Counted from the first letter of the stretch, positions 6,118 through 27,934 are shown. The stretch: DNA of 48,579 bases from Candidatus Angelobacter sp. (GCA_036270475.1 DATBCN010000055.1:1-48579); one strand, 5' to 3'. The notes: a model not told the origin generated them from the letters alone. A program made the numbers and translations.

Positions 6118-7588
6118 AGAGGCCGTGTTTTTCCATTCGCCGGTAGAATGTTCCCCGGCTCAGTCCCAGCACCTCGGCTGCCTGGCTCACGTTTCCGTTA
6201 TAGCGGGCCAGTGCCTTGCCGATCAACTGTGCTTCCACTTCTTCCAGGCTCAATTCAGCGAGATTGGCGGTTCGGGCATTGCTGGCAGAGGGAAGGCCCA
6301 AATGGTTCACGTCAATCTTCTCATCACGGCACATCAGGACGGCGCGTTCAATCGTGTGGTCCAGCTCCCTGACGTTTCCCGGCCAGTAATACTCCAGCAG
6401 TTTTTCCATTGCTTCCGGTGTGAAGCCATCAACCTGCTTGGTGTAGCGCTGGGTATATTTGTGGAGGAAATGTGAGGAGAGCGCGGGTATGTCTTCCCGC
6501 CTTTCGCGTAGAGGAGGTAAGGGAATTTCCACCGTATTCAGCCGGAACAACAAGTCTTCGCGGAAGCTTCCGTCGGCGCATGCGGCCTTAAGATTGGCAT
6601 TGGTGGCGGAAATTACACGCACGCTGACCTTCTGCGTCCGCGATGACCCCACGCGCTCCATTTCGCCGGTTTCAAGCACGCGCAAAAGCCTTGCTTGCTG
6701 CCGCATGGGAACGTTGGCAATTTCATCCAGGAACAATGTCCCGCCGTCGGCCATTTCAAAACGGCCAATGCGATCTGTGCGCGCGTCAGTAAAGGCGCCT
6801 CTTACATGGCCAAACAGCTCGCTTTCAAAAGTGCCTTCAGGCAGGCCGCCGGTATTCACTGTGATCAGCGGTTTATCCGCGCGGCGTGAAACCGCGTGCA
6901 ACATCTGTGCGACAACTTCCTTGCCGCTGCCATGTTCGCCGGTAATTAAGACGCTGGCATCAGACGGGCCAATTTGTGCAATCGCTTCGCTGACTGGCCG
7001 CATCGCGGGCGCCTGGGCCACAAAGGTGGTGCGGCCCTGGTTCCGCATCAACTGGTTTTCAGCCAACAGCCGCTGCCCTTGCCGCAAGGCCCTGTACAGC
7101 TCGGCATGGACCGTAATAGTGGAAACGAGCCGTTCGTCATCCCATGGTTTCTGGACGAAATCGCGGGCGCCGCGGCGCACTGCCGCAACGGCCAGATCAA
7201 TGGTGCCCCAGGCAGTCATGACGACAATGGGCAACTGGTTGTCAATTTCTCTCACCCGGTCAAGCAGTTCAATGCCCTCCCTGCCTGAAGTGGTGTCACG
7301 CGCGTAATTCAGATCAAGCAGCACGGCGTCATATTCCCGCAATGCCAGTGACTCCAGCACCACCTGGGGTGAGCGTACGGTGTCCACTTCAAAATGATGC
7401 GATCTGAACAACAATTTCAGCGCATCCAGCACGGCTGGCTGGTCGTCAGCTATCAGGACCCGGTAAGGCTGCTCATTGATACGCATAAGGGTATCGGTGT
7501 TGTCGGAGAGGAACGTTACACCAGGCCTTGAAAAGAAGCCGGTTGCGTCCACGAGCGATGGCAGGAAGCTCTCTCTGGTTTCCATCAC
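6086..7588 (-). CDS. Sigma-54-dependent response regulator (REC + AAA+ + Fis-type HTH), NtrC family
   Basis: The receiver is YRVLIADDQ...LLDLNY. Walker A is GEHGSGKE, the GAFTGA variant is GAFTDA, and Walker B is LFLDEI. The C-terminal HTH is GNVSQAAEVLGLSRGTFYRRM. The GTG at 7588 overlaps the permease stop (GTGA). An ATG at 7585 has a GAGGG SD 7 nt upstream, and M35 (7486) is a further possible start. Confidence 0.9.
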   Translation of the reverse strand: MMETRESFLPSLVDATGFFSRPGVTFLSDNTDTLMRINEQPYRVLIADDQPAVLDALKLLFRSHHFEVDTVRSPQVVLESLALREYDAVLLDLNYARDTTSGREGIELLDRVREIDNQLPIVVMTAWGTIDLAVAAVRRGARDFVQKPWDDERLVSTITVHAELYRALRQGQRLLAENQLMRNQGRTTFVAQAPAMRPVSEAIAQIGPSDASVLITGEHGSGKEVVAQMLHAVSRRADKPLITVNTGGLPEGTFESELFGHVRGAFTDARTDRIGRFEMADGGTLFLDEIANVPMRQQARLLRVLETGEMERVGSSRTQKVSVRVISATNANLKAACADGSFREDLLFRLNTVEIPLPPLRERREDIPALSSHFLHKYTQRYTKQVDGFTPEAMEKLLEYYWPGNVRELDHTIERAVLMCRDEKIDVNHLGLPSASNARTANLAELSLEEVEAQLIGKALARYNGNVSQAAEVLGLSRGTFYRRMEKHGLYVPSAVKKEK

Positions 7589-10074
7589 TCGGCCCTCAGC
7601 ACTACCATGGGTTCAATTGCTGTTGCGCGTGCAGCGATTACCAGGCTGGTCAAGAAAGCAATTGTTACAAGAAGCAGGGCTGCGGTTGCAAGAATTCCTA
7701 TGGTAGCGTCGGGCGTATTATAAATTAACGTACCAAGGAATTTAGCCAGAAAAATACTGGCTGCCGAGCCAAGCAGGATGCCAATGGCCACCAGCCCAAC
7801 CCCCTGTTTTACGATCAAACCTATTACCTGCGGCCTTTTGGCCCCTACAGCTACTCTCATGGCGATCTCCCTGGTACGCAAAATTAGCTGATAACTCAAT
7901 ATTCCATACAAACCCACCGCGGTCAGCAGCAGGGCAAAGGCCCCAAAAGCGCCAATCAATGACACATAAAAACGCGGCCGGGCCAAGGAAGTTGACACAA
8001 CCTGGGTCAGAGGCCGCAAGGACACTATCGCCAGATCGCGGTCAGCCCCGGTCAAGGCATGACGGAGCGATTCATAAACGTTGGCATATCTGTCAGAGCG
8101 GACAACAATCGAGGTTGGAAACAACCGGTTCATGAACGCCGTAATCTGGTCCGGCGCCTGTTTGGGATCAATAAAGACGGTGGGCGGTGGAAGTTTTTCC
8201 AGTCCTGTCTGCCGGACATCGGCAACCACCCCAATGACTTCACGCGGAACATCAGAAAACTGGCTGCCCAATTCGCTTCCCATCGCCACCATTTTTCCGA
8301 GTGGTGATTGATTGGGCCACCATTGCCGCGCCAGCCCCTCGCTCACGATTGCTACTGGCTTGTTGCCGCGATCATCGCGGTCTGAAAAAAATCTTCCGGC
8401 AAGGAGTGGTATACGAAGAGTGCGAAAATAATTGGCACTGACAACTCGAAACTGGGATTCTCCATACGGGCTGCTGTCCTGGACATCGGCGGGATACATG
8501 GGTATGCCCAGCCCCTGTTCCAGCGGCAAGCCGTTGATGCTGGCGACCGACTCCACTCCGGGAACATCTTTTAGCTGGGCGATCACTCTGTCCAGGAGCT
8601 GCGCCGTGGCTGCGGTTGTTGTATAGCGATCAGGCGCCAGGGAAATCTGCCCCACGGAAACGTTGTGCGGGTCAAAGCCTGGCTGGACCGATTGCAGCTT
8701 TAAAAAGTTTTGCAACAATGAAGCGGTCCCCGCCAGCAGGAGTAACGTCAGGGAAGTCTGGGCTGTAACGAGCATCCGGCCAAGCCGCGTCTGCTGGATA
8801 CTGTGACTGCCGGTTTGGGCGGATTGACGGATCATATCGTTCAAACTAACGCGGGACATCCTGATGGCCGGCGTGAGCCCGGATAAAACCGCCGTTGCCA
8901 CGGAGATAGTCAACACAAACAGGAGCACGTGCATGTCCATCCTGATCGTGCCGCTGAGCGGCAAGTCCGCCGGCACAAACCAACTGATGAAGGGAATCAG
9001 CTCCTTGCCGGCAATACTGCCAATTACTCCGCCAGTTATGCAGATTAGGATTCCATCCATCAGGAAAGTCCGGATCAACCGCCGCCTGCTGGATCCCAAA
9101 GCCGCCCTGATGGCAAACTCGTGGCCGCGGGCGGCGCCGCGAACAGTGAGGCATAGAGCCAGATTGGTGCATGTAATCAAAAGGACGAATATGACTGCGC
9201 CAAATAAGGAGAGAATACTTTTACGGACGCCCGAAACGATAAAATCCTGCAACTGATCTGGCGCCAGAGAAATGTCATCTGCTATGGAACGCACTGGATA
9301 AGTAAGGCGATAGTCTGCCGTCGAGGCCAATTCCTGCCGGGCATCCTGGAGGCTGATTCCGTCTCTCAAGCGCGCAATGACACGATACTCGTTTCCCGCA
9401 TCGAGAGTGGCCGAACTCAAAGGGAGCGGCAGCCACAGGTCCGCATCCGGATATGACTGAAACCCTTTTTGCATAATGCCCACGATGGAGTAGGGTTCCC
9501 CATTGATGTGAATTTCGCTTCCTACTGCGGACGCATCCTTGTTGTAATCCTGTTCCCACAAACCATAGCTCAGGATCACCACCCGTGGTCCGCCAGCCTG
9601 TTCTTCGTTTGGACTGAATTCTCTGCCCAGCACGGGGGAGGAGCCAAGGGTGCGAAAGAATTCCAGGGAAACCTGTTGCGCTTGCTTATATTGTGGCGAT
9701 CCCATGGCCGCCACGTTTACACCTGCATTCACACCCGCGTTTACGCCATGGACCGCGGCAATATCTCTAAAGGAACGCGAGCGTTCTTTCAGCATGAAAA
9801 ATGCTGGCGCCGAAATGTCTCTGGTTAGCCGTCCCTGGGAATTGTGCCAGGTGATAATCACCAGCCGGTCAGGGCTTATATAAGGTAGAGGGCGCAATAG
9901 GGAAGCGTTGACGATGCTGAAAACGATGGTGTTCGCGGCGATTCCCAGAGCGAGAGTAATGATTCCCATAGCGGCAAAACCGGGCGTCTTTTGGAGCGAA
10001 CGCATGGAATAGGATATGTCTTGAAGAAGCGTTCGCATTACCCTTACCGGCCCTCCTCTCTGCTTCACAAACAA
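7585..10074 (-). CDS. MacB/FtsX-type ABC transporter permease, duplicated orphan (ADOP-like) family
   Basis: 829 aa. It has the same N-terminal signature as the 2102 gene (LLQDISYSMRSLQKTPGFAAMGIITLALGIAANTIVFSIVNA) and two FtsX-like TM blocks. It is the first gene of a permease-RR-HK minus-strand operon. Confidence 0.85.
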   Translation of the reverse strand: MFVKQRGGPVRVMRTLLQDISYSMRSLQKTPGFAAMGIITLALGIAANTIVFSIVNASLLRPLPYISPDRLVIITWHNSQGRLTRDISAPAFFMLKERSRSFRDIAAVHGVNAGVNAGVNVAAMGSPQYKQAQQVSLEFFRTLGSSPVLGREFSPNEEQAGGPRVVILSYGLWEQDYNKDASAVGSEIHINGEPYSIVGIMQKGFQSYPDADLWLPLPLSSATLDAGNEYRVIARLRDGISLQDARQELASTADYRLTYPVRSIADDISLAPDQLQDFIVSGVRKSILSLFGAVIFVLLITCTNLALCLTVRGAARGHEFAIRAALGSSRRRLIRTFLMDGILICITGGVIGSIAGKELIPFISWFVPADLPLSGTIRMDMHVLLFVLTISVATAVLSGLTPAIRMSRVSLNDMIRQSAQTGSHSIQQTRLGRMLVTAQTSLTLLLLAGTASLLQNFLKLQSVQPGFDPHNVSVGQISLAPDRYTTTAATAQLLDRVIAQLKDVPGVESVASINGLPLEQGLGIPMYPADVQDSSPYGESQFRVVSANYFRTLRIPLLAGRFFSDRDDRGNKPVAIVSEGLARQWWPNQSPLGKMVAMGSELGSQFSDVPREVIGVVADVRQTGLEKLPPPTVFIDPKQAPDQITAFMNRLFPTSIVVRSDRYANVYESLRHALTGADRDLAIVSLRPLTQVVSTSLARPRFYVSLIGAFGAFALLLTAVGLYGILSYQLILRTREIAMRVAVGAKRPQVIGLIVKQGVGLVAIGILLGSAASIFLAKFLGTLIYNTPDATIGILATAALLLVTIAFLTSLVIAARATAIEPMVVLRAE

Positions 10075-10159
10075 CCTACGCGGCCTGCAATTACTCCAGG
10101 CCGGGACCTAATCATAAAAAATCCTGTGAACAGCGGAGCACGTTCATAGTTCTTCCAGC

Positions 10160-10175
10160 GCATCTTGAGGGCCTT
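10160..10175 (-). promoter_or_regulatory. Weak candidate sigma-54 promoter for the permease-RR-HK operon
   Basis: The minus strand reads AAGGCCCTCAAGATGC. GG and GC are in the 12-nt register, and the GGCC-N6-ATGC pattern matches the candidates at 2043 and 10726. The T of TGGC is missing. The nearest dyad centre (10254.5) lies 82 bp upstream, the same geometry as at ADOP-1. Confidence 0.35.
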
Positions 10176-10246: not shown

Positions 10247-10282
10247 TGTCCATCCTTGGACACTAGTGTTCATCCGTGGACA
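10247..10282. promoter_or_regulatory. Dyad pair B: TGTCCA-N4-TGGACA sites phased 20 bp apart
   Basis: TGTCCAtcctTGGACA (10247-10262) is a perfect palindrome. TGTTCAtccgTGGACA (10267-10282) has one mismatch. Confidence 0.6.
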
Positions 10283-10431: not shown

Positions 10432-10467
10432 TGTTCATCTCTGGACAACTCTTTCCAGCGCTGGACA
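10432..10467. promoter_or_regulatory. Dyad pair C: TGTCCA-N4-TGGACA sites phased 20 bp apart
   Basis: TGTTCAtctcTGGACA (10432-10447) and TTTCCAgcgcTGGACA (10452-10467) each carry one mismatch in the left half. Confidence 0.6.
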
Positions 10468-10725: not shown

Positions 10726-10741
10726 TTGGCCGTTCTCATGC
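10726..10741 (+). promoter_or_regulatory. Proximal candidate sigma-54 promoter of the lanthipeptide operon
   Basis: TTGGCCGTTCTCATGC has GG at 10728-10729 and GC at 10740-10741 in the 12-nt register. The predicted start lies about 44 nt before the precursor ATG at 10797. Confidence 0.5.
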
Positions 10742-10796
10742 TATTTAGCATGGGCGGGAACCCCCAACAAAATCTAAAAAAAGAGGAGACAAAACC

Positions 10797-10922
10797 ATGT
10801 CGAACGTACTGATGCTTCAGAGACTGCACTCCAACACCAGTTCTTCAGAATTCATGAACCTGTTTGGCAGCGCGGTAAGCACCGTTTGCCCCATTGGCGA
10901 TAGTCCGTTTCAGATGGAGTAG
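10797..10922 (+). CDS. Class III-type lanthipeptide precursor peptide (41 aa), not in the ORF track
   Basis: ATG 10797 is preceded by the SD GAGGAG (10783-10788, 8-nt spacing), and the stop is TAG 10920-10922. The product is MSNVLMLQRLHSNTSSSEFMNLFGSAVSTVCPIGDSPFQME. The leader carries VLMLQ, like the (I/V)L(D/E)LQ box of class III leaders. The core carries Ser-x2-Ser-x2-Cys (SAVSTVC). It lies 90 nt upstream of the synthetase gene. Confidence 0.65.
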   Translation: MSNVLMLQRLHSNTSSSEFMNLFGSAVSTVCPIGDSPFQME

Positions 10923-11012
10923 TGCTGACGGGGCTCTCTGTTGCGAAATGGGCGATCTAGTTCTGGCCGATTCCAACAGAGGGCCCAGGCAATTTAGTTT
11001 GAGGATAAAGAT

Positions 11013-13703
11013 ATGCGGAGCCGACCCAATCCGTTGTATCGCTTGGTAGATAAGGATTACCACGAGAACTTTGACGCCTATGCGCCACAGAAAATGGATT
11101 TTTGTGACCTGGTTTTCGCAGGTCTTCCTGCAGGATGGGGCATTCAGCGAAGAGGCATTTGGTTTCATTGTGGTTCGCCTCAAAACGCCATGCCCCAGCA
11201 AGGCTGGAAGATTCACGTTTCCGCAACGCCGGCGAATGCGCGTGATCTGCTGCAACGTGTGAGCTCTGTACTTTTTGACAGACGAGATACCGATTTCAAG
11301 TTTGCTCTCGACATGTCAACCCTGTTCCTGCTCAACGGCAAAAATTGGTCTCGGGGCGGATCAGGAAAATTTATCACCGTATATCCCCATGACAATTATC
11401 ACTTTCTTGACCTGATGGAGCAACTCTATCGAGTCACTGAAGGGCAGCGTGGTCCATATATCCTTTCTGACCATCGTTATAAAGACAGCAACGTTCTGTT
11501 CTTTCGTTTTGGAGGTATGCGCCTCTATGACGTGCTCAATGTAAAAGGAGAGCGCACCCCCATGCTCGTGGCCCCGGATGGCACAGAAGTTCCGGACCAG
11601 AGAACAGCATATCCAGTAACGCCATCATGGGAAAATCCTCCTCTGCCCCTGGGAGACCCGGCCACGCAGCAGGAATCCCAGGGAATGAAAGGTGGGCGTT
11701 ATCAGATTCAGGATGTGCTCGATTTTTCTAATGCCGGAGGAGTGTACAGGGCGATTGACCAGCAAACTGGCAAGAAGGTTGTGATCAAAGAAGCCCGCCC
11801 GTGCATCAATTCCACGTTCGATGGCTATGACGCTGTTGAGCTGCTCAAGAAAGAGCATCGTCTGCTCACCGTCCTGAAAGACACTGGCATTGCGCCCCAG
11901 CCGGTGGATCTCTTTAAGGAATGGGAACATTGGTTTCTGGTTGAAGAATTCATCGAAGGCGATTCCATGGGCGCGCACTCCGCGCAGCACAATGTGCTGC
12001 TAAGGACCAGGCCCAGACCGGAACAGTATGAAGAGTGGTATGCAACTTTTCGTTCCGTCTGCGTCAGCCTGGCAAGGATCATGGACGTGCTGCATGCCCA
12101 CCAAATCGTCTTTGCGGATCTCTCCATCAATAATCTTATTGTGCTCGCCGGCAAGGCGGAGTTGACGCTGATTGATTTTGAAGGAGCAAGCCAGATTGGG
12201 GTTGACCGCCCAAGTACGGTTTTTACACCGGGTTTTGTTTCAGAAAACCGGCTCGCCGGATCTAACGCCGCGTATGCGGATGACTATTATTCGGTTGGTG
12301 CAGTCCTGCTCGCGTATCTGTTTCCCATCAACTCTCTTTTTCATCTCAAGCCAAAAGCGAAGCGGGAAATATTGGCCACGATTCAGAGAGATGCAAAGCT
12401 TCCCAAGGCAATCGCTGATTTGCTGCTGGATTTGATGGACCAGGATCCTGCGCGGCGGCCAGTGCCTGCCAAAATGCTGGAAGTGCTGGCTTCAGAGCCG
12501 GTAATTGAAAAGCAAATTGTTCCAGTTCCATCTGAGCGAAATTTTGAACCATTGTTGAATGGCATCGTGGCGCATATTGAACAGGCTGCAACCTATGCAC
12601 GCCAGGACCGGCTATTTCCGGCTGATCCAAAAGTGTTTGCTACCAACCCTCTTAGCCTTGCCTATGGCGCGGCTGGAGTTGGATATGCGCTCACCGAAAT
12701 CAAAGGGACCCGCTCAGATGAGCTATTAGACTGGGTCCTCCGCCACAAGATTGCACCCCAAACTTATGCCCCCGGCTTATACGTGGGTATGGCAGGGATC
12801 GCACAATGCCTGCTGGAAATGGGCGCTGTAAAGGAAGCGGAAGAACTCTTCCAGCAGACATTTCGGCATCGTTTGCTGCATGACGCTCCCGGCATTTTTT
12901 ATGGGACCGCCGGTTGGGGCATGGCGAATCTCCGGTTCTTTCTGCAAACGGGCAATCAACTTTATTTGGATGAAGCAACCAAAGCCGGCAACCATCTGCT
13001 TGAGACGTGCCTACTGGCGCCTGCCGGCTGCTTCTGGGGCACGCCCAATGAGACGCCTCTTGGATTAGCGCATGGGGCCAGCGGCATCGCGGTTTTTTTA
13101 CTGTATCTCTACCTGGCTACCCGCAATGAGGTTTTTTTAGAAGCCGGACGCCGGGGACTGGAATTTGATCTCAGCTTTGCGGTGACAACCAAAGACGGCG
13201 GTCTGTCCTGGCGTCAAGCCACGCAAGGGCAGTCGCCGCTCTTTCCATACTGGCGATTTGGCAGCGCCGGTATCGGCATGGCTGTGCTGCGCTATGCCCG
13301 GGTCCTGCGCACGGAAAACTATCAATCAATCCTGGAAAAAATCTTTATCGATACTGACCGCAAATACGTGGTCCTTCCGGGAAAGTTCATTGGTCTGGCG
13401 GGAATCGGCGATTTCATGCTCGATATGCATCAGTTTACCGGTGAGGCCAGATACCTTGAATCCGCCATAAAAGCGGCTGAAGGCATTCAGAAATTCCGCG
13501 TCGAGAGACAACAAGGCATAGCGTTTCCCGGAGATATGCTTTCCCGGCTCTGTTGTGACTACGGCACAGGCAGCGCGGGAATTGGACTCTTTCTGAACCG
13601 TCTTCTGCGCCGGCGAAAGAGTGACTTCATGTTGGATTGCCTGTTAGAACAATCCGGACTGCTGCCATCGTTGCAGCAAATACAAGTATCGCAATCGGCG
13701 TGA
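11013..13703 (+). CDS. Class III (possibly IV) lanthipeptide synthetase: N-terminal phospho-Ser/Thr lyase, central Ser/Thr kinase, C-terminal LanC-like cyclase domain
   Basis: 896 aa. Lyase-domain marks are QGWKIHVS and GKFITVYP. Kinase marks are VVIKEARP (Lys), the FADLSINN catalytic loop and LIDFEG. The cyclase repeats are GLAHGASGIA, then WRFGSAGIG where zinc-type LanC has WCxG, then LCCDYGTGSAGIG. At least one zinc-ligand Cys is therefore absent, which is class III-like. Confidence 0.85.
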   Translation: MRSRPNPLYRLVDKDYHENFDAYAPQKMDFCDLVFAGLPAGWGIQRRGIWFHCGSPQNAMPQQGWKIHVSATPANARDLLQRVSSVLFDRRDTDFKFALDMSTLFLLNGKNWSRGGSGKFITVYPHDNYHFLDLMEQLYRVTEGQRGPYILSDHRYKDSNVLFFRFGGMRLYDVLNVKGERTPMLVAPDGTEVPDQRTAYPVTPSWENPPLPLGDPATQQESQGMKGGRYQIQDVLDFSNAGGVYRAIDQQTGKKVVIKEARPCINSTFDGYDAVELLKKEHRLLTVLKDTGIAPQPVDLFKEWEHWFLVEEFIEGDSMGAHSAQHNVLLRTRPRPEQYEEWYATFRSVCVSLARIMDVLHAHQIVFADLSINNLIVLAGKAELTLIDFEGASQIGVDRPSTVFTPGFVSENRLAGSNAAYADDYYSVGAVLLAYLFPINSLFHLKPKAKREILATIQRDAKLPKAIADLLLDLMDQDPARRPVPAKMLEVLASEPVIEKQIVPVPSERNFEPLLNGIVAHIEQAATYARQDRLFPADPKVFATNPLSLAYGAAGVGYALTEIKGTRSDELLDWVLRHKIAPQTYAPGLYVGMAGIAQCLLEMGAVKEAEELFQQTFRHRLLHDAPGIFYGTAGWGMANLRFFLQTGNQLYLDEATKAGNHLLETCLLAPAGCFWGTPNETPLGLAHGASGIAVFLLYLYLATRNEVFLEAGRRGLEFDLSFAVTTKDGGLSWRQATQGQSPLFPYWRFGSAGIGMAVLRYARVLRTENYQSILEKIFIDTDRKYVVLPGKFIGLAGIGDFMLDMHQFTGEARYLESAIKAAEGIQKFRVERQQGIAFPGDMLSRLCCDYGTGSAGIGLFLNRLLRRRKSDFMLDCLLEQSGLLPSLQQIQVSQSA

Positions 13704-15016
13704 TGCTCAAAATCGGAGGACCATTGGCTGAGAACGGCAATGACGAGAGCAATGGCGCCGTTGAAGAACGAGACGAACTAACTGGAGCGCTTGCAGACAT
13801 TTTCCTTAGGGTGCGTAAGAGCCTAATCGCCAGTGAGCCTGGCGGCGCTGCAAGTTCTGATGTTTCAGTTCAGGGTGGGGAAAGAATTTATGTCCCGGAA
13901 GGCCCACAACTCTATGACGGGACCTCAGGAATCGCGCTATTTTTGGCCGCCTACCACTACGCCACAAATAATCAGGACGCTCGCGATCTGGCACTGCGTT
14001 CCGCGGCGCGTCTGCGTTTCGCAATCAAGCAAAGTGCTACAGCGGCAAGCCTCGCCCGCCAGTCCGGCAATGGAACTGGGGGGCTGGCTGGCGTGGGATC
14101 TCTTCCGTACGCCTTTGTGCATCTTGCGGCTTGGTTGAAAGTGCCTGAATTTATTGATGCTGCTCGCGAAGTGGCCACCAATATCATGCCGGAACAGATC
14201 ATGGCGGAAGAACGCCTTGATGTTATGCGCGGCTGTGCGGGTACATTGCTGGCCCTTCTGTCCTTTATTGAAGAAGTGACCGCAATGGGCATGGACTGTG
14301 GCATCGCGCCGGACCTTGCCCTACTCTGCGGGCGGCGATTACTGGAAAAACGCATCTCGTATAATTCCGGTCCGCGGGCATGGTCGGCTGGGGATTCGCT
14401 TCCACTCTCAGGATTTGCCCATGGCGCGGCAGGCATTGCTTATGCCCTGGTCCGGCTCTTTCAATACACTGGACAGGAAGAATTTCGCGATGCTGCCATC
14501 GAAGGATTCGCTTTCGAACGTACTCTTTATATTCCGGAACTTCAAACCTGGTTCGATCCTCGCTGCAATCTGCCATTGAGCAAAGCTTCGTGGTGCGAGG
14601 GTGCGCCCGGAGTGGCGCTGGGTATTTTGGGCAGCATGATCGCAATTGATTCACATGCCTTACGCCATGATCTTGAACAAGCGCTCAGCATTACCCGCAT
14701 GCTTCCTGAAGGGCCAGTCGACCATTTATGTTGCGGCAATTTTGGCAGAGTTGAGATCATGAATATTGCGGGCAGCGTCCTGGGCCGGTTGCAGCTTACC
14801 GCGCACGCCCGCCAACTGGCCACGCAACTCCTGGCTCGCGCGGCCACTTCCGGCTTCCGCTTTCAACCCATTGATCATCAGCCCTCCTTACCTGACATGT
14901 CTGAAAATAATCCATCTCTATTTCTTGGGCTGGCTGGAGTGGGTTATACCTTGCTGCGGCTGAATTACCCTGATCTTTTTCCCTCAGTCCTGCTGCTGGA
15001 CACAATCGTCCTATAG
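13703..15016 (+). CDS. Stand-alone LanC-like lanthionine cyclase with a full zinc-ligand set
   Basis: ATG 13703 overlaps the LanKC stop (TGATG). The ORF track extends it to 13637. Motifs are SGFAHGAAGIAYAL (GxAHG), SWCEGAPGVALG (WCxG) and HLCCGNFG, which has Cys-Cys where NisC has Cys-His, as in three-Cys LanM cyclase domains. There are seven GxxG-type repeats. Confidence 0.8.
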   Translation: MLKIGGPLAENGNDESNGAVEERDELTGALADIFLRVRKSLIASEPGGAASSDVSVQGGERIYVPEGPQLYDGTSGIALFLAAYHYATNNQDARDLALRSAARLRFAIKQSATAASLARQSGNGTGGLAGVGSLPYAFVHLAAWLKVPEFIDAAREVATNIMPEQIMAEERLDVMRGCAGTLLALLSFIEEVTAMGMDCGIAPDLALLCGRRLLEKRISYNSGPRAWSAGDSLPLSGFAHGAAGIAYALVRLFQYTGQEEFRDAAIEGFAFERTLYIPELQTWFDPRCNLPLSKASWCEGAPGVALGILGSMIAIDSHALRHDLEQALSITRMLPEGPVDHLCCGNFGRVEIMNIAGSVLGRLQLTAHARQLATQLLARAATSGFRFQPIDHQPSLPDMSENNPSLFLGLAGVGYTLLRLNYPDLFPSVLLLDTIVL

Positions 15017-15076: not shown

Positions 15077-15112
15077 TGTCCGTGACCGGAATGGAGCGTC
15101 CAACGCTGGACA
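15077..15112. promoter_or_regulatory. Dyad pair D: TGTCCA-N4-TGGACA-like sites phased 20 bp apart
   Basis: TGTCCGtgacCGGAAT (15077-15092) has a weak right half. CGTCCAacgcTGGACA (15097-15112) has one mismatch. The proximal centre lies 60 bp upstream of the GG of the sigma-54 promoter at 15164. Confidence 0.5.
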
Positions 15113-15161: not shown

Positions 15162-15177
15162 TTGGCAACATTCTTGC
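15162..15177 (+). promoter_or_regulatory. Sigma-54 (-24/-12) promoter of the enhancer-binding-protein gene
   Basis: TTGGCAACATTCTTGC(A) is a near-consensus match to TGGCAC-N5-TTGCA with the correct register (GG 15164-15165, GC 15176-15177). It lies 96 nt upstream of ATG 15273. Confidence 0.7.
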
Positions 15178-15272
15178 ACATTCAATAAGCGAAAGTGAGT
15201 ACCAGACGGCCACCTGAAAAGTAGCAAGAAGCAGCCATCAGGTTTGCGAAATGCCGGAAACCAATATTCGCG

Positions 15273-16976
15273 ATGACGAAAACAGATGACCTCTTTTTTG
15301 CAGCCAAGAGATTGAGAGGAACGGTTATGGGCGCCATATACTTTTCTTGCGATCAGGAATCATTGTTCATGGGATTGTCAATATTGCTGCGCGGGATCTC
15401 TTATCCCAGCCAGGCGGGAGAAACCATTGCCTCATCGTTCGAATCGGCAGCTAGGGGGCTTGGCGCCGCCCGCGGTGGATTGTTTTTGGTTCGGCACCAC
15501 CCGTCCGCAACTCGTTTGGAAACGCTGTGTCATTATCAAATGAACCCACAACATATCCGTGCCATTGAGTACGGTACTGATTCTGAAGATGCTGCCACTA
15601 GCCGGATCTGGAAAATTTTCAGCCAATGGGATGCAGGAACAAGCTCCTGGAAGGCTGGACCAATCGAGAAGGCAGCACCCAACTTGTACGTCATTTGCAT
15701 TCCGATCATAGACCCGGTACTTGATTCACCCGTTGCTGTTTTGCATTTTGAAAAAGAGACTGAGAACAACCCAGAGTTTGAGGCGGTGGCAAAAGAGTGG
15801 ATCACTCCATACGCGCTTGCACTGGGGCAAATCCTGAACCTTGGCTTCTCATCCACACAGGTCGAGATCGAAAGCGATGGAAAAGCAATCGATATCAAAA
15901 CGCCCGAGAATGCTCCGGAGTTGATTGGTGTTTCGGTGCAGACCCAGGCCTTGCGCCAGGAGCTGCACGATATTCACATTCCCGCGGCAAGCGCCCCAGA
16001 TCCTGACCCGATTCTGATCCTGGGTGAAAAGGGAACGGGCAAGGACCTGATTACGCGATATATCTATGCCTACAGCACGCGCCGCAATCGGCCCTATGTG
16101 GCGGTGAATTGTGCGGAGATCACGGATGAACTGGCAAGCGCGCGTTTCTTTGGGCATAAAAAAGGCTCTTTTACCGGATCGCTGGCCAACGAGCCTGGGC
16201 TATTCAGAGCGGCCGACCACGGCGTGCTCTTTCTTGATGAGATAGGCGATCTCTCACTCAAAGCGCAGGGAACTTTACTGCGCGTGCTGGAGAACCGCAC
16301 TGTCGTCCCGCTTGGGGAAACCAGAGAACAGCGAATTGATGTGCAGGTGATTCTGGGGACCAACTGTGATCCAGACCGCGCTGTTGCCGAGGGACGTATG
16401 CGTCCTGATCTTCTTGATCGTTTTCGCACTCAGGCAATCCGGCTGGCCCCGTTACGCGAACGGCCATGGGACATTCCCGCGCTGGTCCGTCATTTCATCG
16501 CTTACAACGAGAAGCGCACCCAGAAAAAAATCCTCAGCCTCCACGCCGATGTGCTGAAGATGCTGGTCGGGTATTCCTGGCCGGGCAACGTGCGGGAGTT
16601 GGCAAGGATATGTTCCTTGCTGGTTACGCATGTGAAGTCTGGCAGCCCAATTGATGCAGCGCTGTTCAGCCGGGTCATTCCTAATATCGGGAAGGAAGAA
16701 TGGAACCCTAAGGCTGGCGCAATGCTCGTGGGGAACGTTCCTATGCGGGAAGCCCTGGAAACCTTTGGACGTGAACTGATTCTTGCTCGTCTGCGGCAGC
16801 ACAACTGGAACATCAAGTCAGCGCGCGAAAGCCTTGGCCTTCCCAAAACAACGTTTCATCGTTATACACGCGCCCTGGGAATCGCCGGTTCCGTTCGCGA
16901 CGAACTAGCAGGAATAGAACAGTTCCCATATCCGACAAAACCGTTTGCTGGCGGAGGAATTCCCGCACTCAGTTGA
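15273..16976 (+). CDS. Sigma-54-dependent transcriptional activator (N-terminal sensory domain, AAA+, C-terminal HTH); no receiver domain
   Basis: 567 aa. Walker A is GEKGTGKD, the GAFTGA variant is GSFTGS, and Walker B is LFLDEIGDL. WPGNVREL and the HTH NIKSARESLGLPKTTFHRY are present. The ~230-aa N-terminal region looks GAF-like (tentative). Confidence 0.85.
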   Translation: MTKTDDLFFAAKRLRGTVMGAIYFSCDQESLFMGLSILLRGISYPSQAGETIASSFESAARGLGAARGGLFLVRHHPSATRLETLCHYQMNPQHIRAIEYGTDSEDAATSRIWKIFSQWDAGTSSWKAGPIEKAAPNLYVICIPIIDPVLDSPVAVLHFEKETENNPEFEAVAKEWITPYALALGQILNLGFSSTQVEIESDGKAIDIKTPENAPELIGVSVQTQALRQELHDIHIPAASAPDPDPILILGEKGTGKDLITRYIYAYSTRRNRPYVAVNCAEITDELASARFFGHKKGSFTGSLANEPGLFRAADHGVLFLDEIGDLSLKAQGTLLRVLENRTVVPLGETREQRIDVQVILGTNCDPDRAVAEGRMRPDLLDRFRTQAIRLAPLRERPWDIPALVRHFIAYNEKRTQKKILSLHADVLKMLVGYSWPGNVRELARICSLLVTHVKSGSPIDAALFSRVIPNIGKEEWNPKAGAMLVGNVPMREALETFGRELILARLRQHNWNIKSARESLGLPKTTFHRYTRALGIAGSVRDELAGIEQFPYPTKPFAGGGIPALS

Positions 16977-17084: not shown

Positions 17085-17405
17085 ATGATAGAACCATGGT
17101 TCGACCCAATTCGATATTCGTGGATTACAGGCGTTACGTTTGGTGCAATAGCACTGGCGCTGGGTGCGCTTGCAGCATGGCTCGTTCCTAAAGGCAAAGC
17201 CAAAGGGTTTATTGTTAGCTCATGGGTGGGCTTGTGGGCTGCGGCAATCATTCTTCTGATTACGGGAATCGTGGCCTTCCACGATCAGCAGCCCTGGGGC
17301 GTGTGGTATGGCCTGCTGCTGCCGGGCATTGTTGGTACCGCGGTAGTCGGAGGGAACCTGTTTGTCATCCTAAAGCGATACCATGAAGTGGAGCACCGCC
17401 AGTAG
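17085..17405 (+). CDS. Small integral membrane protein (3 predicted TM helices), unknown function
   Basis: 106 aa. The SD AAGGAG lies 9 nt upstream of the ATG. There are three hydrophobic stretches (ITGVTFGAIALALGALAAWLV, WVGLWAAAIILLITGIVAF, GLLLPGIVGTAVVGGNLFVIL). Confidence 0.55.
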   Translation: MIEPWFDPIRYSWITGVTFGAIALALGALAAWLVPKGKAKGFIVSSWVGLWAAAIILLITGIVAFHDQQPWGVWYGLLLPGIVGTAVVGGNLFVILKRYHEVEHRQ

Positions 17406-17584: not shown

Positions 17585-17686
17585 CTTCCTTTCAATCTCT
17601 CCAAAAATTTTGACGCAAGCCATGGCTGTATGCGTGTCTAGTCTTTGTGGAAGTGTGAAAGCCTAACTTACCTCAAGGTTGATTTC

Positions 17687-19132
17687 ATGAAAGCCCCCCC
17701 CGCATTGTCTGCCGCGTCTCTTTGTGCTTTTTCTGCAGCGGAGATCGCGCAACTGGTTCGTTCGCGGGAAGTCTCCGCTGTCGAAGTGATGCAGCAGTAC
17801 GCCGAACGTATACAGAAGCTGAATCCAGTATTGAATGCTTTTGCGCATCTCGATTTGGATCGTGCTTTCGCGGAAGCAAAGCGCATCGATTCAGATGGGT
17901 GCCACGATTCCACGGAAAGCACTCTGTTGGGCGTGCCGGTCACCATAAAATCCTGTATTGACGTGAAAGGTTTGCGTTGCGCGGCGGGAAGCCGCTTAAG
18001 GTCAGATTACATAGCCGCAAGCGATGCTCCCGTGGTTGCCCGCCTTAAAAAGGCCGGAGCAATCGTGATTGGCAATACTACGACTCCTGAAATGTTGATG
18101 GCTTATCACACAAAAAATGACATCCACGGGCGGACTAACAATCCCTGGGACTTGAGCCGCACTCCAGGAGGCTCCAGCGGCGGCGAAGCTGCAGCCATTT
18201 CTTCCGGCATGTCTGCTGGTGGATTGGGCAGTGATGGCGGGGGATCCATTCGAGTTCCCGCGCATTTCACCGGAATCTGCGGACTCAAGCCGACGCCCGG
18301 CCTGGTTCCCTCTACGGGGCACTATCCTGCATGCGTTGGCCCTTTCTCCCTTATCGGCGTGGTAGGACCGATGGCGCGGACCGTAAAAGATTTGCAATTG
18401 CTTTTTGCGGCAGTCGTGGGCTATGGTCCCGCTGATCCCGCATCCCTACCCACGATGGTAAAAGTCCTGGATCGCAAGCACGTGAAGCAACTGCGCATTG
18501 GCTATTACGAAGATGATGGAGAAAGCTATCCGGGGGCCGAGACAACCGCTGCAGTTCGTGCCGCGGCTGGTGCTTTAAGGAGTGCCGGGTTCATTGTGGA
18601 AGCTTTTCGTCCGAAAGGTCTTGCAGATGCGCGGGAGCTATGGACTGTGATTTTTGTTGAGGCTGGCGCGTTGCTTCTGGCGACGTTGGTTCGAGGGCGT
18701 GAAGATGAGGTAAACCCCAATACACGGGAGTTTCTTGCTCTCGCTGCCGCTCGTCCCGCGCTGACGGGCGAGCGTTTGCTGGGCGCATTGATTGAACAAG
18801 ACCAGTTGCGCATGCGCGTAGAAGAGCAGATGCGCGACTATCCCATTTTGCTGGCGCCGGTCTGTTCCATGCCGGCATTTCCTCACCAGGATGCAGGGTG
18901 GGGACCGGAGCATGAGGCCGACTATCTGCGCACCATGACCTACTGCCAACATTACAACCTTCTGGGCAACCCTGCCGCTACTGTTCCGATTACTCAATCA
19001 CCAGAAGGTTTGCCGATAGGCGTGCAGATTATCGGACGCCCTTGTCACGACCATGAAGTCCTGGCTATCGCAGAAGCATTGAACGAACAATATAAGTGGA
19101 GAGAGCCCCCTCTGTGCAGGGCGATGGCATGA
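17687..19132 (+). CDS. Amidase-signature family amidase (GatA-like fold)
   Basis: The amidase signature is GGSSGGEAAAISSGMSAGGLGSDGGGSIRVPA. The catalytic Lys context is VPVTIKSCID. The ORF track starts at TTG 17645, but ATG 17687 (MKAPPALSAASL) is more likely. Confidence 0.85.
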   Translation: MKAPPALSAASLCAFSAAEIAQLVRSREVSAVEVMQQYAERIQKLNPVLNAFAHLDLDRAFAEAKRIDSDGCHDSTESTLLGVPVTIKSCIDVKGLRCAAGSRLRSDYIAASDAPVVARLKKAGAIVIGNTTTPEMLMAYHTKNDIHGRTNNPWDLSRTPGGSSGGEAAAISSGMSAGGLGSDGGGSIRVPAHFTGICGLKPTPGLVPSTGHYPACVGPFSLIGVVGPMARTVKDLQLLFAAVVGYGPADPASLPTMVKVLDRKHVKQLRIGYYEDDGESYPGAETTAAVRAAAGALRSAGFIVEAFRPKGLADARELWTVIFVEAGALLLATLVRGREDEVNPNTREFLALAAARPALTGERLLGALIEQDQLRMRVEEQMRDYPILLAPVCSMPAFPHQDAGWGPEHEADYLRTMTYCQHYNLLGNPAATVPITQSPEGLPIGVQIIGRPCHDHEVLAIAEALNEQYKWREPPLCRAMA

Positions 19133-20550
19133 AGAAGGCCGATTGTTTTAGCCGATCTTTCAACAAACGAACTGAAATACCCGATATGTCTCTAAAAGGA
19201 ACATCATCCGAGCGATCGCCCACGGTTGCTCTTATTTTGGGTCTGCTCGTCACTCTTGCAGCAGTGATGTCTTATTCTTGGTATATCACTGGGCAAATCT
19301 CTGGGCTGCGCACAATGCAGCGAGATATGGCCGACAGGAACCGTAGGGATTCGATTCAGTTATTGCGAATACAAGACGACTTGTATTCACTGGGTTTGGC
19401 CATGCGTGACATGCTCAATGCCGATCAGTCGAATCCTCTTACCGCATGGGAGGCGCAATTCCAGAGGATTCGAGGCGATCTGGAAGATGCTTTCCGGTTG
19501 GAGAGCAAGGTAGCTGTCGAGCATCGAAACGCGGCGCAGCAACAATACCTAGCAGCTTCCGTGACGCAGTTCTGGAATGCCCTGGACCGGGCTTTTGCGT
19601 TGGCAACAAAAGGAAATGAAGACGAAGCGCGCATACAAATCCGCGCTTGTTTGCCGCAACAGGCAGCAATTGGCAATTTGGTGGCAAGGTTACTGGTTGA
19701 AAATAATGAAAGCGAGGAACAAACAGCGCTCCAAATTGGACGCATTTACGATGGCGTGCAACGCCATGTCTATCTGTTTCTGGGCGGGGCCCTTGCCACC
19801 ATTCTCCTGAGCACTCTTTGTCTGATTGATTTGAGCCGCCGTCTGTTTGCTAAGGTATCTTTGCTTTCTCACCAACGCAGCGATCTTGCCCAAAAACTTA
19901 TTTCCACACAGGAGTCAGTCCTTCGGCACATCTCCAGAGATCTGCATGATGAGTTCGGACAAATATTAACGGCTATAGGAGCAATGCTGTCACGCATGCG
20001 CAATCAATCCTGGGAGAAGTCTTCCGTTCGCGATGGTTTACAAGAAATTTGCGAAATTACCCAGTCGGCACTCGACAATGTTCGCAGCCTTTCCCAGGCC
20101 CTGCACCCTGTGATACTGGAGGAGGAAGGGCTTGAGAGCGCGCTAGATTGGTACCTACCGAATGTTGAAAGACAGACCGCCATCTCCATTGCCTATGAAA
20201 AATCCGGCGTGGGATTCGTGCTTGAGAGCAGCGCTGCGGTTCATATCTACCGTGTTTTGCAGGAGGCCCTAAACAACGCCATACGCCATTCACGGACTCC
20301 TGAAGTCTGTGTGCGGCTTCATTACTTGAGCAATGCATTAGTGCTTGAAGTTGAGGACCATGGCACAGGCTTATGCCTTCAACAGGGAGCACCAGGAATT
20401 GGACTTGTGGGCATGCATGAGCGCGCGGAGATATTGGACGCAAAAATAGATTTTATGCCGGCAATTCCGGTGGGTACCCTAATGCGGCTGACTGTTCCCA
20501 GATGCCGCGTTGATTCGTTTGAGCAGCAACCCCTTGTGGCTTCTTCTTGA
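19129..20550 (+). CDS. Sensor histidine kinase, HisKA_3/NarX-DesK type (2 TM with extracytoplasmic helical sensor)
   Basis: ATG 19129 overlaps the amidase stop (ATGA). The ORF track extends it to 19096. The H-box is DLHDEFGQILTAI, with ALNNAIRHS, EDHGTGL and GIGLVGMHERA. TM helices are VALILGLLVTLAAVM and LFLGGALATILLSTLCLI. Confidence 0.8.
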   Translation: MKKADCFSRSFNKRTEIPDMSLKGTSSERSPTVALILGLLVTLAAVMSYSWYITGQISGLRTMQRDMADRNRRDSIQLLRIQDDLYSLGLAMRDMLNADQSNPLTAWEAQFQRIRGDLEDAFRLESKVAVEHRNAAQQQYLAASVTQFWNALDRAFALATKGNEDEARIQIRACLPQQAAIGNLVARLLVENNESEEQTALQIGRIYDGVQRHVYLFLGGALATILLSTLCLIDLSRRLFAKVSLLSHQRSDLAQKLISTQESVLRHISRDLHDEFGQILTAIGAMLSRMRNQSWEKSSVRDGLQEICEITQSALDNVRSLSQALHPVILEEEGLESALDWYLPNVERQTAISIAYEKSGVGFVLESSAAVHIYRVLQEALNNAIRHSRTPEVCVRLHYLSNALVLEVEDHGTGLCLQQGAPGIGLVGMHERAEILDAKIDFMPAIPVGTLMRLTVPRCRVDSFEQQPLVASS

Positions 20551-20868: not shown

Positions 20869-21561
20869 ATGTCGTCAGCTATGCGCGATGAACAGATGGC
20901 TAGCCAAAGGTCCTCTTCCGTCCCTCTCTGCCCGCAAGACCGCATTTCCGTTCTTCTTGTAGACGATCATGGTCTGGTGCGCCGGGGCTTTAGGCGCATC
21001 TTGGAAGATAGTAAGGACATTTGGGTTATTGGCGAAGCGAGCGATGGGGCCGCCGCGGTCAAGATGGTTCAGGAGCTAGCGCCTCACGTAGTCATCATGG
21101 ATTGCGCCCTTCCCGGAATGAGCGGCCTTACGGCGACAAATCGAATCGTGGAAATATCAACGGGGACGAACGTGCTGATGTTGAGCATGCATGCCGAAGA
21201 TACCTGGGTGCGCAAGGCACTCAGCGTTGGTGCGCGAGGTTACATTCTGAAGAATGCTGTTGATTTGGACCTGGTGACGGCGGTGAAGAAAGTGGCAGGG
21301 GGAGAAATAGTACTTGACCCGCAGCTTTCCCGCCGGTGCGTCTTGAAGGGCGAAAGGAACCATGGTCTTACCCACAGGGAGTTGCAAATTCTCCAACATA
21401 TAGTAGCAGGCAAATCAAACAAAGAGATCGCCGGGCAGCTCGATATCAGCGTGAATACGGTGGCGGTTCATCGCGCCAACATGATGCAGGCTCTGGGAAT
21501 CCACAATGCCGCGGGACTTGTCGCTTACGCAATTCGGAATGGCTTGATCAATGTTCTGTAG
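20869..21561 (+). CDS. Response regulator, NarL/LuxR family (REC + LuxR-type HTH)
   Basis: 230 aa. The receiver is ISVLLVDDH...VVIMDCALPGMSG. The HTH is LTHRELQILQHIVAGKSNKEIAGQLDISVNTVAVHRANMM. The exact start among M1, M5 and M10 is uncertain. Confidence 0.85.
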   Translation: MSSAMRDEQMASQRSSSVPLCPQDRISVLLVDDHGLVRRGFRRILEDSKDIWVIGEASDGAAAVKMVQELAPHVVIMDCALPGMSGLTATNRIVEISTGTNVLMLSMHAEDTWVRKALSVGARGYILKNAVDLDLVTAVKKVAGGEIVLDPQLSRRCVLKGERNHGLTHRELQILQHIVAGKSNKEIAGQLDISVNTVAVHRANMMQALGIHNAAGLVAYAIRNGLINVL

Positions 21562-22028: not shown

Positions 22029-22283
22029 ATGGATGTTGATGCCGTCAGGACCAAGATTAAACAAGCAATTCACCGTGTAGCTGGCATTGAAGTGGCCGCC
22101 ATTTCTGATACGGCCTCTTACGAAACTGACCTTGGATTAGACTCGCTTTCCATTCTTGAGATCTCCGTGGAGTTGGAAAACCAGTTCAAGTTCCATGCTT
22201 CTGACGAAGAATTGTCTTCAATCCATACCGTGCAAGATGCTGTGGATCTTGTGACAAAGAGAGTGGGCGTGGAAGTAGCATGA
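22029..22283 (+). CDS. Acyl carrier protein
   Basis: 84 aa from ATG 22029, with GGAG 9 nt upstream. The ORF track starts at GTG 22014. The phosphopantetheine attachment motif is DLGLDSLSILEI. The stop overlaps the next gene's start (ATGA). Confidence 0.8.
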   Translation: MDVDAVRTKIKQAIHRVAGIEVAAISDTASYETDLGLDSLSILEISVELENQFKFHASDEELSSIHTVQDAVDLVTKRVGVEVA

Positions 22284-24756: not shown

Positions 24757-24760
24757 TTTC

Positions 24761-25996: not shown

Positions 25997-26071
25997 GTCT
26001 CGGCGAATTTCGCCTGCAATCTTATTTTCTGATCTCCTAGTTACATAGACTCACTCCAAAGGCAGAAATCT

Positions 26072-27786: not shown

Positions 27787-27934
27787 TTTTATTTTGTCCC
27801 GCCTGAGAATCATCTGAGCAAATCCCATTTACCCAACTGTCTAAGTGCAATGTAGCTACTTTTCCGTTCCGGTGTGGGGATTGCTCTCAGCGTTTGTGTT
27901 GGCGATCTTCTGAACCAGCAGGAGTGATTGTCCC

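Follow-up and report, generated by a model that had tools for sequence, protein, structure and literature searches.

A 48,579-nucleotide stretch of DNA from Candidatus Angelobacter sp. (GCA_036270475.1, DATBCN010000055.1:1-48579; this whole 48.6-kb stretch is called the window here) carries genes for a 41-residue peptide, a class III lanthionine synthetase (LanKC) and a predicted stand-alone zinc-type LanC cyclase, next to a divergent operon for a permease of the ADOP family, an NtrC-type response regulator and a sensor histidine kinase (Table 1). There are good grounds for thinking that this locus is a sigma-54-controlled class III lanthipeptide system of a Terriglobia acidobacterium. Judged from the sequence, the kind of system is a known one, a class III lanthipeptide cluster, with several features that are non-standard. 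Evidence for this reading came largely from comparison with 28 related LanKC loci from species-representative genomes, which were retrieved with a profile built from 23 LanKC homologues; more than 1,200 LanKC homologues scored at E <= 1e-20. Most of the 28 loci come from metagenome-assembled genomes (MAGs) of Terriglobia, Ca. Angelobacter or Acidobacteriaceae, the nearest LanKC being 90% identical at the protein level, and the window was placed in an acidobacterial context because the MAGs closest to it are those of Terriglobia and Ca. Angelobacter. A Terriglobia-dominated clade comprises 23 peptides and loci including the window, and hence 22 relatives. The loci are MAG contigs of related organisms, so that counts such as 21/23 are not independent events, and two of the contigs (L009 and L010) end inside the locus, cutting the flank there.

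The small open reading frame (ORF) was identified as a precursor gene through its conservation next to LanKC. A homologous ORF of 40-54 amino acids lies immediately 5' of LanKC in all 28 related loci; tblastn together with an ORF and regular-expression scan recovered 27 of these, and the copy in L014, which has VLNFQ in place of the LxLQ box, was spotted by eye. Across the 23 clade peptides M1, L5, L7, Q8, S25, S28 and C31 are invariant, and most of these peptides end in F-(Q/E)-M-E. The window peptide has an LxLQ-type LanA leader (VLMLQ, residues 4-8) and exactly one core unit of the Ser-x2-Ser-x2-5-Cys type, formed by S25, S28 and C31. Estimates of dN/dS for the precursor range from 0.06 to 0.25 among the five closest loci, and the codons of the F(Q/E)ME tail differ synonymously (TTT/TTC, GAG/GAA, CAG/CAA), which argues that selection acts on the protein. 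The NCBIfam model lanthi_III_a (NF038154) was matched by 17 of the 23 clade peptides with a best E value of 5.8e-4, and the remaining NCBIfam matches were to two further class III lanthipeptide models only, all of these scores lying below the curated cutoffs; these peptides are a related family outside the coverage of the existing lanthi_III_a model. Given the shared position in 28/28 loci, the invariant residues, the purifying selection and the matches to class III models, the ORF is predicted to be a genuine, conserved class III lanthipeptide precursor gene. The family rule suggested by the alignment is clear: a MxxVLxLQ leader, one SxxSxxC(P) ring motif and an F(Q/E)ME tail.

A preliminary description of this DNA had proposed a 41-codon precursor ORF with GAGGAG 8 nt upstream and a single SAVSTVC unit, and both features are present in the sequence as described; the conservation of the small ORF at orthologous loci, which it had suggested as a check, holds throughout the comparison set. 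Its leader box, (I/V)L(D/E)LQ, needs amending, since only the LxLQ part is invariant and the third position varies (M, K, Q, R, E, D and others). It had also held that the gene was missed by the ORF track. That was so for the track then in use, but public protein collections already hold the exact peptide and several relatives, named just "hypothetical protein". A narrower profile search returned 10 representative peptides at E <= 1e-3 and a word-based search returned five; both therefore under-sample the peptide family. The family is widespread, mainly in Terriglobia and Ca. Angelobacter, and tblastn found no further precursor copies within the window.

Several other aspects of the precursor region vary among the loci. 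The linker between Cys-Pro and the tail is 3-4 residues shorter in the window peptide (10889..10900, residues 32-35) than in all of its closest relatives (CPIG-DSPFQME in the window and CPxGPxGxDSPFQME in the relatives), and is the shortest of the family. Some precursors carry two tandem SxxSxxC units (L005, L006 and L028; for example SSASGICSGTSVVCG), and four loci have a tandem pair of precursor genes (L022, L024, L025 and L027). Between precursor and LanKC lies a GC-rich stem-loop (Table 1), and a similar stem, GGGNCCTCTGT...ACAGAGGGCCC, is visible in L001, L021, L002 and L003. This stem-loop may attenuate transcription, stabilise the mRNA or set the precursor-to-enzyme ratio; it stays tentative because in the precursor-LanKC spacer RNAalifold found no more than 6 pairs, none of them showing covariation. 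An Rfam scan of the whole window returned no family at gathering score.

The assignment of the locus to class III rests on the synthetase. LanKC passed the NCBIfam class III model NF038151 (767.8 bits against a cutoff of 575) and failed the class IV model NF038150 (578.6 bits against a cutoff of 650); zinc ligands, which a class IV LanL enzyme would have, are absent. Pfam matches to RamC_N (3.9e-56), Pkinase (1.4e-16, residues 241-489) and LANC_like delimit a lyase domain (about residues 37-220), a kinase domain (about 241-489) and a metal-free cyclase-like domain (about 546-871), and NCBI names relatives of the two enzymes "class III lanthionine synthetase LanKC" and "LanC family protein". 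The catalytic lyase residues of ThurKC, namely K65, H67, K94, K108, K117, D152, R163 and R191 (PMC10604976), align one to one with K66, H68, K96, K110, K119, D153, R165 and R197 of LanKC, and this set is invariant in 23 homologues, as expected of a class III lyase domain. In the same way K259, D369/N374 and the DFE motif at 388-390, which mark a kinase domain, are invariant in the homologue alignment. The preliminary description had called the locus class III-type, with the small ORF as precursor, an 896-residue lyase-kinase-cyclase 90 nt downstream and a TGATG overlap with LanC; the ORFs, the Pfam domains (a search it had recommended) and the two synthetase models all agree with it.

The cyclase-like domain of LanKC sets it apart from its best-understood relatives. 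The closest solved structures are those of ThurKC (8sao, 8sap and 8sam; E ~1e-74) and, for the cyclase domain, 9wj0 (E 1e-21), which was taken as TherKC since its LRSGLAGIGL and GLIDGWSGVS motifs fall at the residue numbers given for that enzyme (PMC13504147). The zinc ligands of NisC, C284, C330 and H331 (S725, F769 and D770 in TherKC), correspond to R748, F792 and I793 in LanKC, and the domain was therefore classed as metal-free and class III-type because all three positions hold non-ligands. The canonical His of the AHG motif is kept as H687 where TherKC has D666. The III-a/III-c cyclase signature (Zhang et al. 2026; R609, D666, S725, F769 and D770 in TherKC) is absent, the equivalents in LanKC being F629, H687, R748, F792 and I793, with the Phe alone in common. 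The LanKC family is nearest to subclasses III-a and III-c and, by these residues, a member of neither. Two candidate features of the domain were rejected: the motif RLCCDYGTGSAG (residues 845-856, containing LCCDYG) was considered as a Cys-His zinc-ligand motif and proved, in the TherKC alignment, to be the last GxxG repeat, and the Asp of this motif, considered as the equivalent of ThurKC D771, was withdrawn together with the hint of a LanC takeover read from its replacement by Ser in L004, L007 and L008, the true equivalents being F792 and I793.

The third gene of the operon encodes a protein made of a single LANC_like domain (Pfam, 3.8e-47), and its start codon, which like that of the permease was inferred, overlaps the LanKC stop codon in a TGATG arrangement through which LanC is predicted to be translationally coupled to LanKC. 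Its top sequence matches are to the cyclase half of LanM enzymes (TIGR03897, 256 bits; LicM2, 6st5), and H240 and the ligands C298, C343 and C344, a Cys-Cys-Cys set, align with the H, C and CH positions of LicM2. Among 110 LanC homologues each ligand Cys is kept in 105-108 and H240 in 91. An AlphaFold2 model (predicted local distance difference test, pLDDT, 85.7; predicted template modelling score, pTM, 0.88) was matched by Foldseek to LanCL1/2, LicM2, CuvL, MadC and NisC, with probability 1.00 for LanCL1/2, LicM2, MadC and NisC. The LANC_like alpha,alpha-toroid fold, the catalytic His and the three ligands are those of a zinc LanC.

Homologues of this LanC were found in two contexts. One is beside LanKC, in the layout seen in the window; in L033, for example, kinase, regulator and ADOP permease lie on one strand and precursor, LanKC and LanC on the other. 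The second is a set of class I clusters (L029-L032) whose LanC is 40-46% identical and which encode a split LanB (Lant_dehydr_C and Lant_dehydr_N) and Cys-rich peptides with double-Gly leaders. The ORFs scanned in the window gave no Lant_dehydr family match, and so no LanB partner; because of this absence and the split LanB of L029-L032, LanC was assigned to a class I lineage and the cluster itself was not assigned to class I. LanC is present in seven of the 28 related loci (8/29 with the window). In a neighbour-joining tree of LanKC the seven loci and the window form one clade, with L003, which has no LanC, inside it, which argues for a single acquisition followed by secondary loss in L003; no remains of a LanC turned up in the gap at L003. 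Taken together, the sequences suggest that LanC is a class I-lineage, Cys-Cys-Cys zinc cyclase acquired once by a class III operon. The preliminary description had treated a separate LanC as a routine part of the operon. The gene is there, but as an unusual cyclase shared by the minority of loci just counted.

Evidence for sigma-54 control came from the position of promoter motifs and from a second type of element. A TGG[CT]-N8-TGC motif lies 5' of the precursor ATG in 21/23 Terriglobia-clade loci, at 58-89 nt in 20 and at 34 nt in L010 (binomial P ~3e-36 relative to the background rate, with relatedness ignored). The ADOP gene is preceded by [TA]GG[CT]-N8-TGC in 19/21 loci, the first base of the window copy being A, not T, and the downstream activator gene has such a motif in 5/5 loci that carry the gene. 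The pattern TGTYCA-N4-TGGACA occurs at five sites in the window (10 strand matches, with 0.5 matches expected), all at sigma-54-type promoters; two pairs of these dyads sit in the divergent permease-precursor intergenic region. The dyads recur in relatives: the columns of the 10432..10467 pair do not vary when the five closest loci are aligned, and the fifth dyad is kept in L002 and L021 and is one mismatch off in L003. The -24/-12 spacing at a conserved position, two Sigma54_activat proteins nearby and the dyads as putative binding sites are together what a sigma-54 regulon would present, and the NtrC-type regulator is the candidate binder of the dyads. No rpoN gene is among the window's scanned ORFs, though no search was directed at it. 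A consensus scan for sigma-70 promoters and terminators around the locus found nothing above shuffled sequence, with no sigma-70 site in the 722 nt upstream of the precursor. A near-perfect palindrome, CATGCT-ATTT-AGCATG (10737..10752), overlaps the -12 element in the promoter of the precursor. L001 and L021 carry an identical copy, L002 and L003 a degraded one; an operator is one possible role, a 5'-terminal hairpin in the transcript another.

The divergent operon adjoins LanKC in most loci of the clade. Its permease belongs to the ADOP family by score and by its duplicated domains (Table 1), and lies beside LanKC in all 22 Terriglobia-clade relatives, divergently in 19 and on the same strand upstream in L014, L019 and L023. 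Orthologues of the regulator, 67-95% identical, were found in 20/22 relatives, the two others being L009 and L010 with their cut flanks, and a histidine kinase of the same type lies 3' of the regulator in L014 and L033, the loci in which kinase synteny was compared. One hydrophobic segment of the kinase (residues 22-44) was scored and a second (about residues 55-72), separated by an outer loop of about 10 residues, was read by eye; the region that follows gave no domain hit and is taken to be PAS-like. The ADOP permease is a candidate exporter, immunity pump or co-sensor. These findings do not support the earlier view of a "compact" operon with "no dedicated exporter", which is incomplete, since the permease-regulator-kinase operon adjoins it divergently in 19/22 relatives and shares its sigma-54 promoters and dyads. 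The class I clusters L030 (4550..13289) and L032 (5017..16918), in the order LanC, small Lant_dehydr_C, large Lant_dehydr_N and then double-Gly Cys-rich peptides, are also flanked by ADOP-like permeases, a second, independent link between ADOP and lanthipeptides.

Under the sigma-54-controlled class III reading, the kinase would signal to the NtrC-type regulator, which would bind the TGTYCA-N4-TGGACA dyads and open the sigma-54 promoters. LanKC would then bind the N-terminal VLxLQ leader, phosphorylate core Ser/Thr residues (at least S25 and S28) and eliminate the phosphate to give dehydro residues, and addition of Cys31 would form one labionin or lanthionine ring in SAVSTVC, whose spacing is that of the labionin motif STxSNxC in ThurKC and TherKC substrates (ThurA; STVSNNCK in TherA). 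The zinc LanC would most likely catalyse or steer the single thioether closure, by setting lanthionine against labionin or the stereochemistry. An unlinked peptidase would remove the leader; as the preliminary description had noted, no leader peptidase is found, here among the ORFs scanned in the 48.6-kb window. The ADOP permease would export the peptide, protect the cell against it or help the kinase to sense it.

Several observations weigh against parts of this reading. The window peptide scored 15.9 bits (E 0.015) with the lanthi_III_a model and did not reach the curated cutoff of 22. ThurKC and TherKC each depend on an Asp base (D771 and D770, respectively) that LanKC does not conserve, the position being I793 here and variable across the family, and the cyclase-like domain of LanKC may therefore not cyclise by itself. 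The single Cys of the core leaves a second cyclase no thiol to work on; L003 keeps the same core without a LanC, and the notion that LanC is indispensable is counted against, as most of the family, L003 included, does without it. On the regulatory side, the sigma-54 pattern alone is not enriched across the window (15 found and 11 expected), so that support for the promoters comes from conserved position only, in related, non-independent loci, and no ATPase gene was seen near the ADOP permease.

The first alternative that has to be weighed divides the labour between the two enzymes: LanKC would dehydrate only, its cyclase-like domain serving as a scaffold, and the zinc LanC would be the true cyclase, giving a simple lanthionine product. 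We regard this as possible, if somewhat unlikely. The complete, conserved Cys-Cys-Cys site and catalytic His of LanC, its coupling to LanKC and its kinship with cyclases of split-LanB class I clusters are what it would predict, and the LanKC family of acidobacteria has no counterpart of the Asp base on which cyclisation by ThurKC and TherKC depends. Mutations in the cyclase domains of ThurKC and TherKC also impair dehydration, and therefore such a domain can be retained for reasons other than cyclisation. However, 21/28 loci, including L003 inside the LanC-bearing clade, have no LanC and the same SxxSxxC core, and therefore LanKC alone must suffice in most of the family. Moreover, no relaxed constraint was found on the cyclase-like domain in loci with LanC, where it is as conserved as the kinase domain (identity ratio ~1.0).

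A second alternative, likewise possible if somewhat unlikely, concerns the purpose of the product. The peptide may be primarily an autoinducing signal that is co-sensed by the ADOP permease and the short-loop kinase in a Bce-like manner, feeds back on its own sigma-54 promoter and switches on a downstream regulator. Nisin, through NisRK, is a precedent for autoinduction by a lanthipeptide, and SapB is a class III morphogen. The divergence of the permease-regulator-kinase operon from the precursor, with dyads and sigma-54 promoters in common, is consistent with such a circuit, as are the apparent two hydrophobic segments of the kinase with about 10 residues between them (the second read by eye) and the F-(Q/E)-M-E tail, which is conserved at the protein level as a recognition epitope would be. 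A regulator gene follows the biosynthetic genes in most loci with downstream sequence: a sigma-54 activator in the subclade of the window and, elsewhere, a NusG paralogue (six loci), a LuxR-type regulator (three) or an AraC-type regulator (one). Still, the argument is entirely inferential, an antimicrobial with an inducible module for its export or for immunity would show the same layout, and with a regulator of NtrC type rather than OmpR type and no ATPase there is no strict Bce module. A combination, in which a class III synthetase with a recruited class I-lineage zinc cyclase makes a self-inducing signal that is read by ADOP and the short-loop kinase via the sigma-54 promoters, is less probable again and should be regarded as speculative.

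A third alternative gives LanC a substrate outside the ring. It would attach a thiol in trans to a dehydro residue that is left over, much as the eukaryotic LanCL1/2 do with glutathione, the thiol coming from a small molecule or from another peptide; otherwise it would quench stray dehydro residues made by LanKC, for self-protection. The sole core Cys is already needed for the SxxSxxC ring, which leaves no obvious intramolecular substrate; the best matches of the LanC model are LanCL2 and LanCL1 bound to glutathione (template modelling score 0.66-0.75); and the leader-proximal region of the window peptide is rich in Ser and Thr (SNTSSS). The ranking among LanC-fold proteins is close, however, and does not discriminate function, the nearest relatives by sequence are bona fide cyclases of clusters for peptides that are made by the ribosome and modified after translation (RiPPs), and no extra Ser or Thr is conserved across precursors accompanied by LanC, the tails of L004 and L008 having none. 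We therefore consider this a long shot, and rank the roles of LanC as steering or catalysing the single closure first, sole true cyclase second and thiol addition in trans third. Finally, a chance ORF with the real substrate encoded elsewhere might be argued from the fact that 41 codons are unremarkable alone and that the peptide scores below the NCBIfam cutoff, but this idea, to which we give almost no weight, is effectively refuted by the comparative data, with the same position, Shine-Dalgarno sequence, leader and core in 28/28 loci, purifying selection and no second copy in the window.

Parallels exist with characterised class III systems. Andalusicin with ThurKC (class III-a) and TherA with TherKC (class III-c), the nearest relatives of solved structure, share with the window a trifunctional lyase-kinase-cyclase with an identical lyase catalytic set, an N-terminal hydrophobic leader of the VLxLxxL type, one labionin-type S-x2-S-x2-C motif towards the core's end (STxSNxC in theirs) and a cluster without a protease. 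The window differs from them in phylum, in regulation, in its short core that is not Thr-rich, in the conserved F(Q/E)ME tail and in the extra zinc LanC; within the cyclase domain it has H687 for D666, F629 for R609 and I793 for the D770/D771 base. Labyrinthopeptin (LabKC) and SapB (RamC) share the LxLQ box, the Ser/Ser/Cys motif and the metal-free cyclase domain. In these actinobacterial prototypes the motif is S-x2-S-x3-C, usually in two copies, whereas the window has one S-x2-S-x2-C; their clusters encode ABC exporters that include ATPases, and regulators of other kinds (RamR in the case of SapB), in place of ADOP and a sigma-54 two-component system. Leader removal in the prototypes falls to unlinked peptidases, and the same is presumed for the window.

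Parallels outside class III are more partial. The class I clusters L029-L032, with their split LanB and "CCG"-type LanC, belong to the same LanC clade and have the same Cys-Cys-Cys set as the window, but use LanB and Cys-rich double-Gly-leader precursors where the window uses a LanKC dehydratase and a one-Cys substrate. NisRK and BceRS-BceAB resemble the window, as a functional analogy only, in the link between a lanthipeptide locus and a kinase with its regulator. With peptide-sensing modules the window also shares an FtsX/MacB-family permease with large outer domains that is co-encoded with an apparently very short-loop kinase. One important difference is that the regulator is of NtrC type and not OmpR type, with -24/-12 promoters and an orphan duplicated ADOP permease; in the absence of an ATPase gene nearby, only the pairing of permease and short-loop kinase resembles Bce. 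A literature search of limited reach returned nothing on acidobacterial class III lanthipeptides, on LanKC with a stand-alone zinc LanC, on a sigma-54-controlled lanthipeptide or on ADOP function.

Downstream of LanC, the gene for a second sigma-54 activator is confined to the closest subclade, with orthologues in L001, L002, L003 and L021; no family match was found for its N-terminal part (residues 1-226, about 220 amino acids). A small membrane protein travels with it, and a family scan of that protein gave no match beyond a weak ECF_trnsprt hit; tentatively, it may be a member of the locus with an immunity function or a target of the second activator. In loci without LanC, a NusG paralogue, possibly a LoaP-like specialised antiterminator, lies ~0.1-2 kb 3' of LanKC in L005, L010, L013, L015, L017 and L020, directly so in L010, L013 and L017; the LuxR-type regulators are those of L005, L011 and L028, and the AraC-type regulator that of L020. 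A second ADOP gene elsewhere in the window is also preceded by a sigma-54-type motif, and ADOP genes may therefore generally be sigma-54 targets in this organism.

The remaining genes of the window appear to belong to other systems. A HisKA_3 histidine kinase gene (19096..20550), the start of which lies within the end of an amidase gene (17645..19132), has a NarL/FixJ-type response regulator (20869..21561) 3' of it; these three are probably outside the lanthipeptide system because none was found in the related loci. A separate block at 22280..35941 probably serves a lipid or isoprenoid pathway that has nothing to do with the lanthipeptide locus; it holds two ketosynthase-like genes and genes for HMG-CoA reductase, a protein with sigma-70 region 4, an acyltransferase, a pair of ABC1 kinases, an amine oxidase/phytoene-desaturase-like flavoprotein and an RPE65 carotenoid oxygenase. 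A large ORF near the end of the window has little family resemblance (Table 1).

Table 1. Positions, in the window, of the genes and sites discussed in the text, in order along the sequence
Feature	Position	Strand	Remarks
Second ADOP permease gene	2102..4561	+	TIGR03434 870 bits; sigma-54-type motif TGGCCAGAGAGATGCT 58 nt before start (2044)
Sensor histidine kinase, last gene of permease-regulator-kinase operon	4648..6117	-	Pfam HisKA, HATPase_c
NtrC-type sigma-54 response regulator	6086..7588	-	Pfam Response_reg, Sigma54_activat, HTH_8 (receiver, AAA+, Fis-type helix-turn-helix)
ADOP-family duplicated MacB/FtsX-type permease	7585..10074	-	TIGR03434 745.4 bits, cutoff 622.3; Pfam MacB_PCD and FtsX, two copies each
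Candidate sigma-54-type promoter (-24 GG/-12 GC) of permease-regulator-kinase operon, AGGCCCTCAAGATGCG	10159..10174	-	~100 nt before permease start
Dyad pair TGTCCATCCTTGGACA and TGTTCATCCGTGGACA	10247..10282		20 bp apart (10247, 10267); putative upstream activator sites
Dyad pair TGTTCATCTCTGGACA and TTTCCAGCGCTGGACA	10432..10467		20 bp apart (10432, 10452); ~265-295 nt 5' of precursor promoter
Sigma-54-type promoter of precursor operon, TGGCCGTTCTCATGCT	10727..10742	+	Starts 70 nt before ATG
Shine-Dalgarno sequence GAGGAG	10783..10788	+	8 nt 5' of precursor ATG; GGAG-type at almost every orthologous locus
Precursor peptide LanA, 41 aa, MSNVLMLQRLHSNTSSSEFMNLFGSAVSTVCPIGDSPFQME	10797..10922	+	Leader VLMLQ; core S25-x2-S28-x2-C31-P; C-terminal PFQME tail
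GC-rich stem-loop GGGGCTCTCTGTTG...CAACAGAGGGCCC	10931..10986	+	Between precursor and LanKC; minimum free energy -36.2 kcal/mol, z = -2.5
Class III lanthionine synthetase LanKC, 896 aa	11013..13703	+	Starts 90 nt after precursor stop; Pfam domains, NCBIfam
Stand-alone zinc-type LanC cyclase (predicted), 437 aa	13703..15016	+	Single LANC_like domain; ATG overlaps LanKC TGA 13701-13703 (TGATG)
Fifth dyad CGTCCAACGCTGGACA	15097..15112		Starts 66 nt upstream of 15163 promoter
Sigma-54-type promoter of activator gene, TGGCAACATTCTTGCA	15163..15178	+	~95 nt before gene; in 5/5 loci carrying gene
Second sigma-54 activator, AAA+, no receiver	15273..16976	+	Pfam Sigma54_activat; closest subclade only
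106-aa protein, three predicted membrane segments	17085..17405	+	Travels with activator gene in L001, L002, L003, L021
1167-aa ORF	44400..47903	-	C-terminal ABM monooxygenase hit, weak GDSL-lipase hit, otherwise no family

Acidobacteria are abundant in soil, and their natural products are almost entirely uncharacterised. With three genes in ~4.2 kb, the precursor, LanKC and LanC make up a small system that is suited to heterologous expression. The pairing of LanKC with a zinc LanC, together with sister loci that have no LanC, offers a ready comparison for the choice between labionin and lanthionine, and this comparison also bears on why class III cyclase domains need no metal; a LanKC cyclase domain without the Asp base that is essential in two solved relatives is a notable feature in its own right. 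The conserved association of a RiPP operon with sigma-54 promoters, a two-component system and ADOP leads to testable hypotheses on the regulation of silent acidobacterial clusters and on the function of ADOP. If the product did prove to be a self-inducing signal made by a hybrid system, read by ADOP and the kinase, the large family of ADOP "orphan permeases" would gain its first assigned function, and Acidobacteria their first described circuit based on a peptide pheromone.

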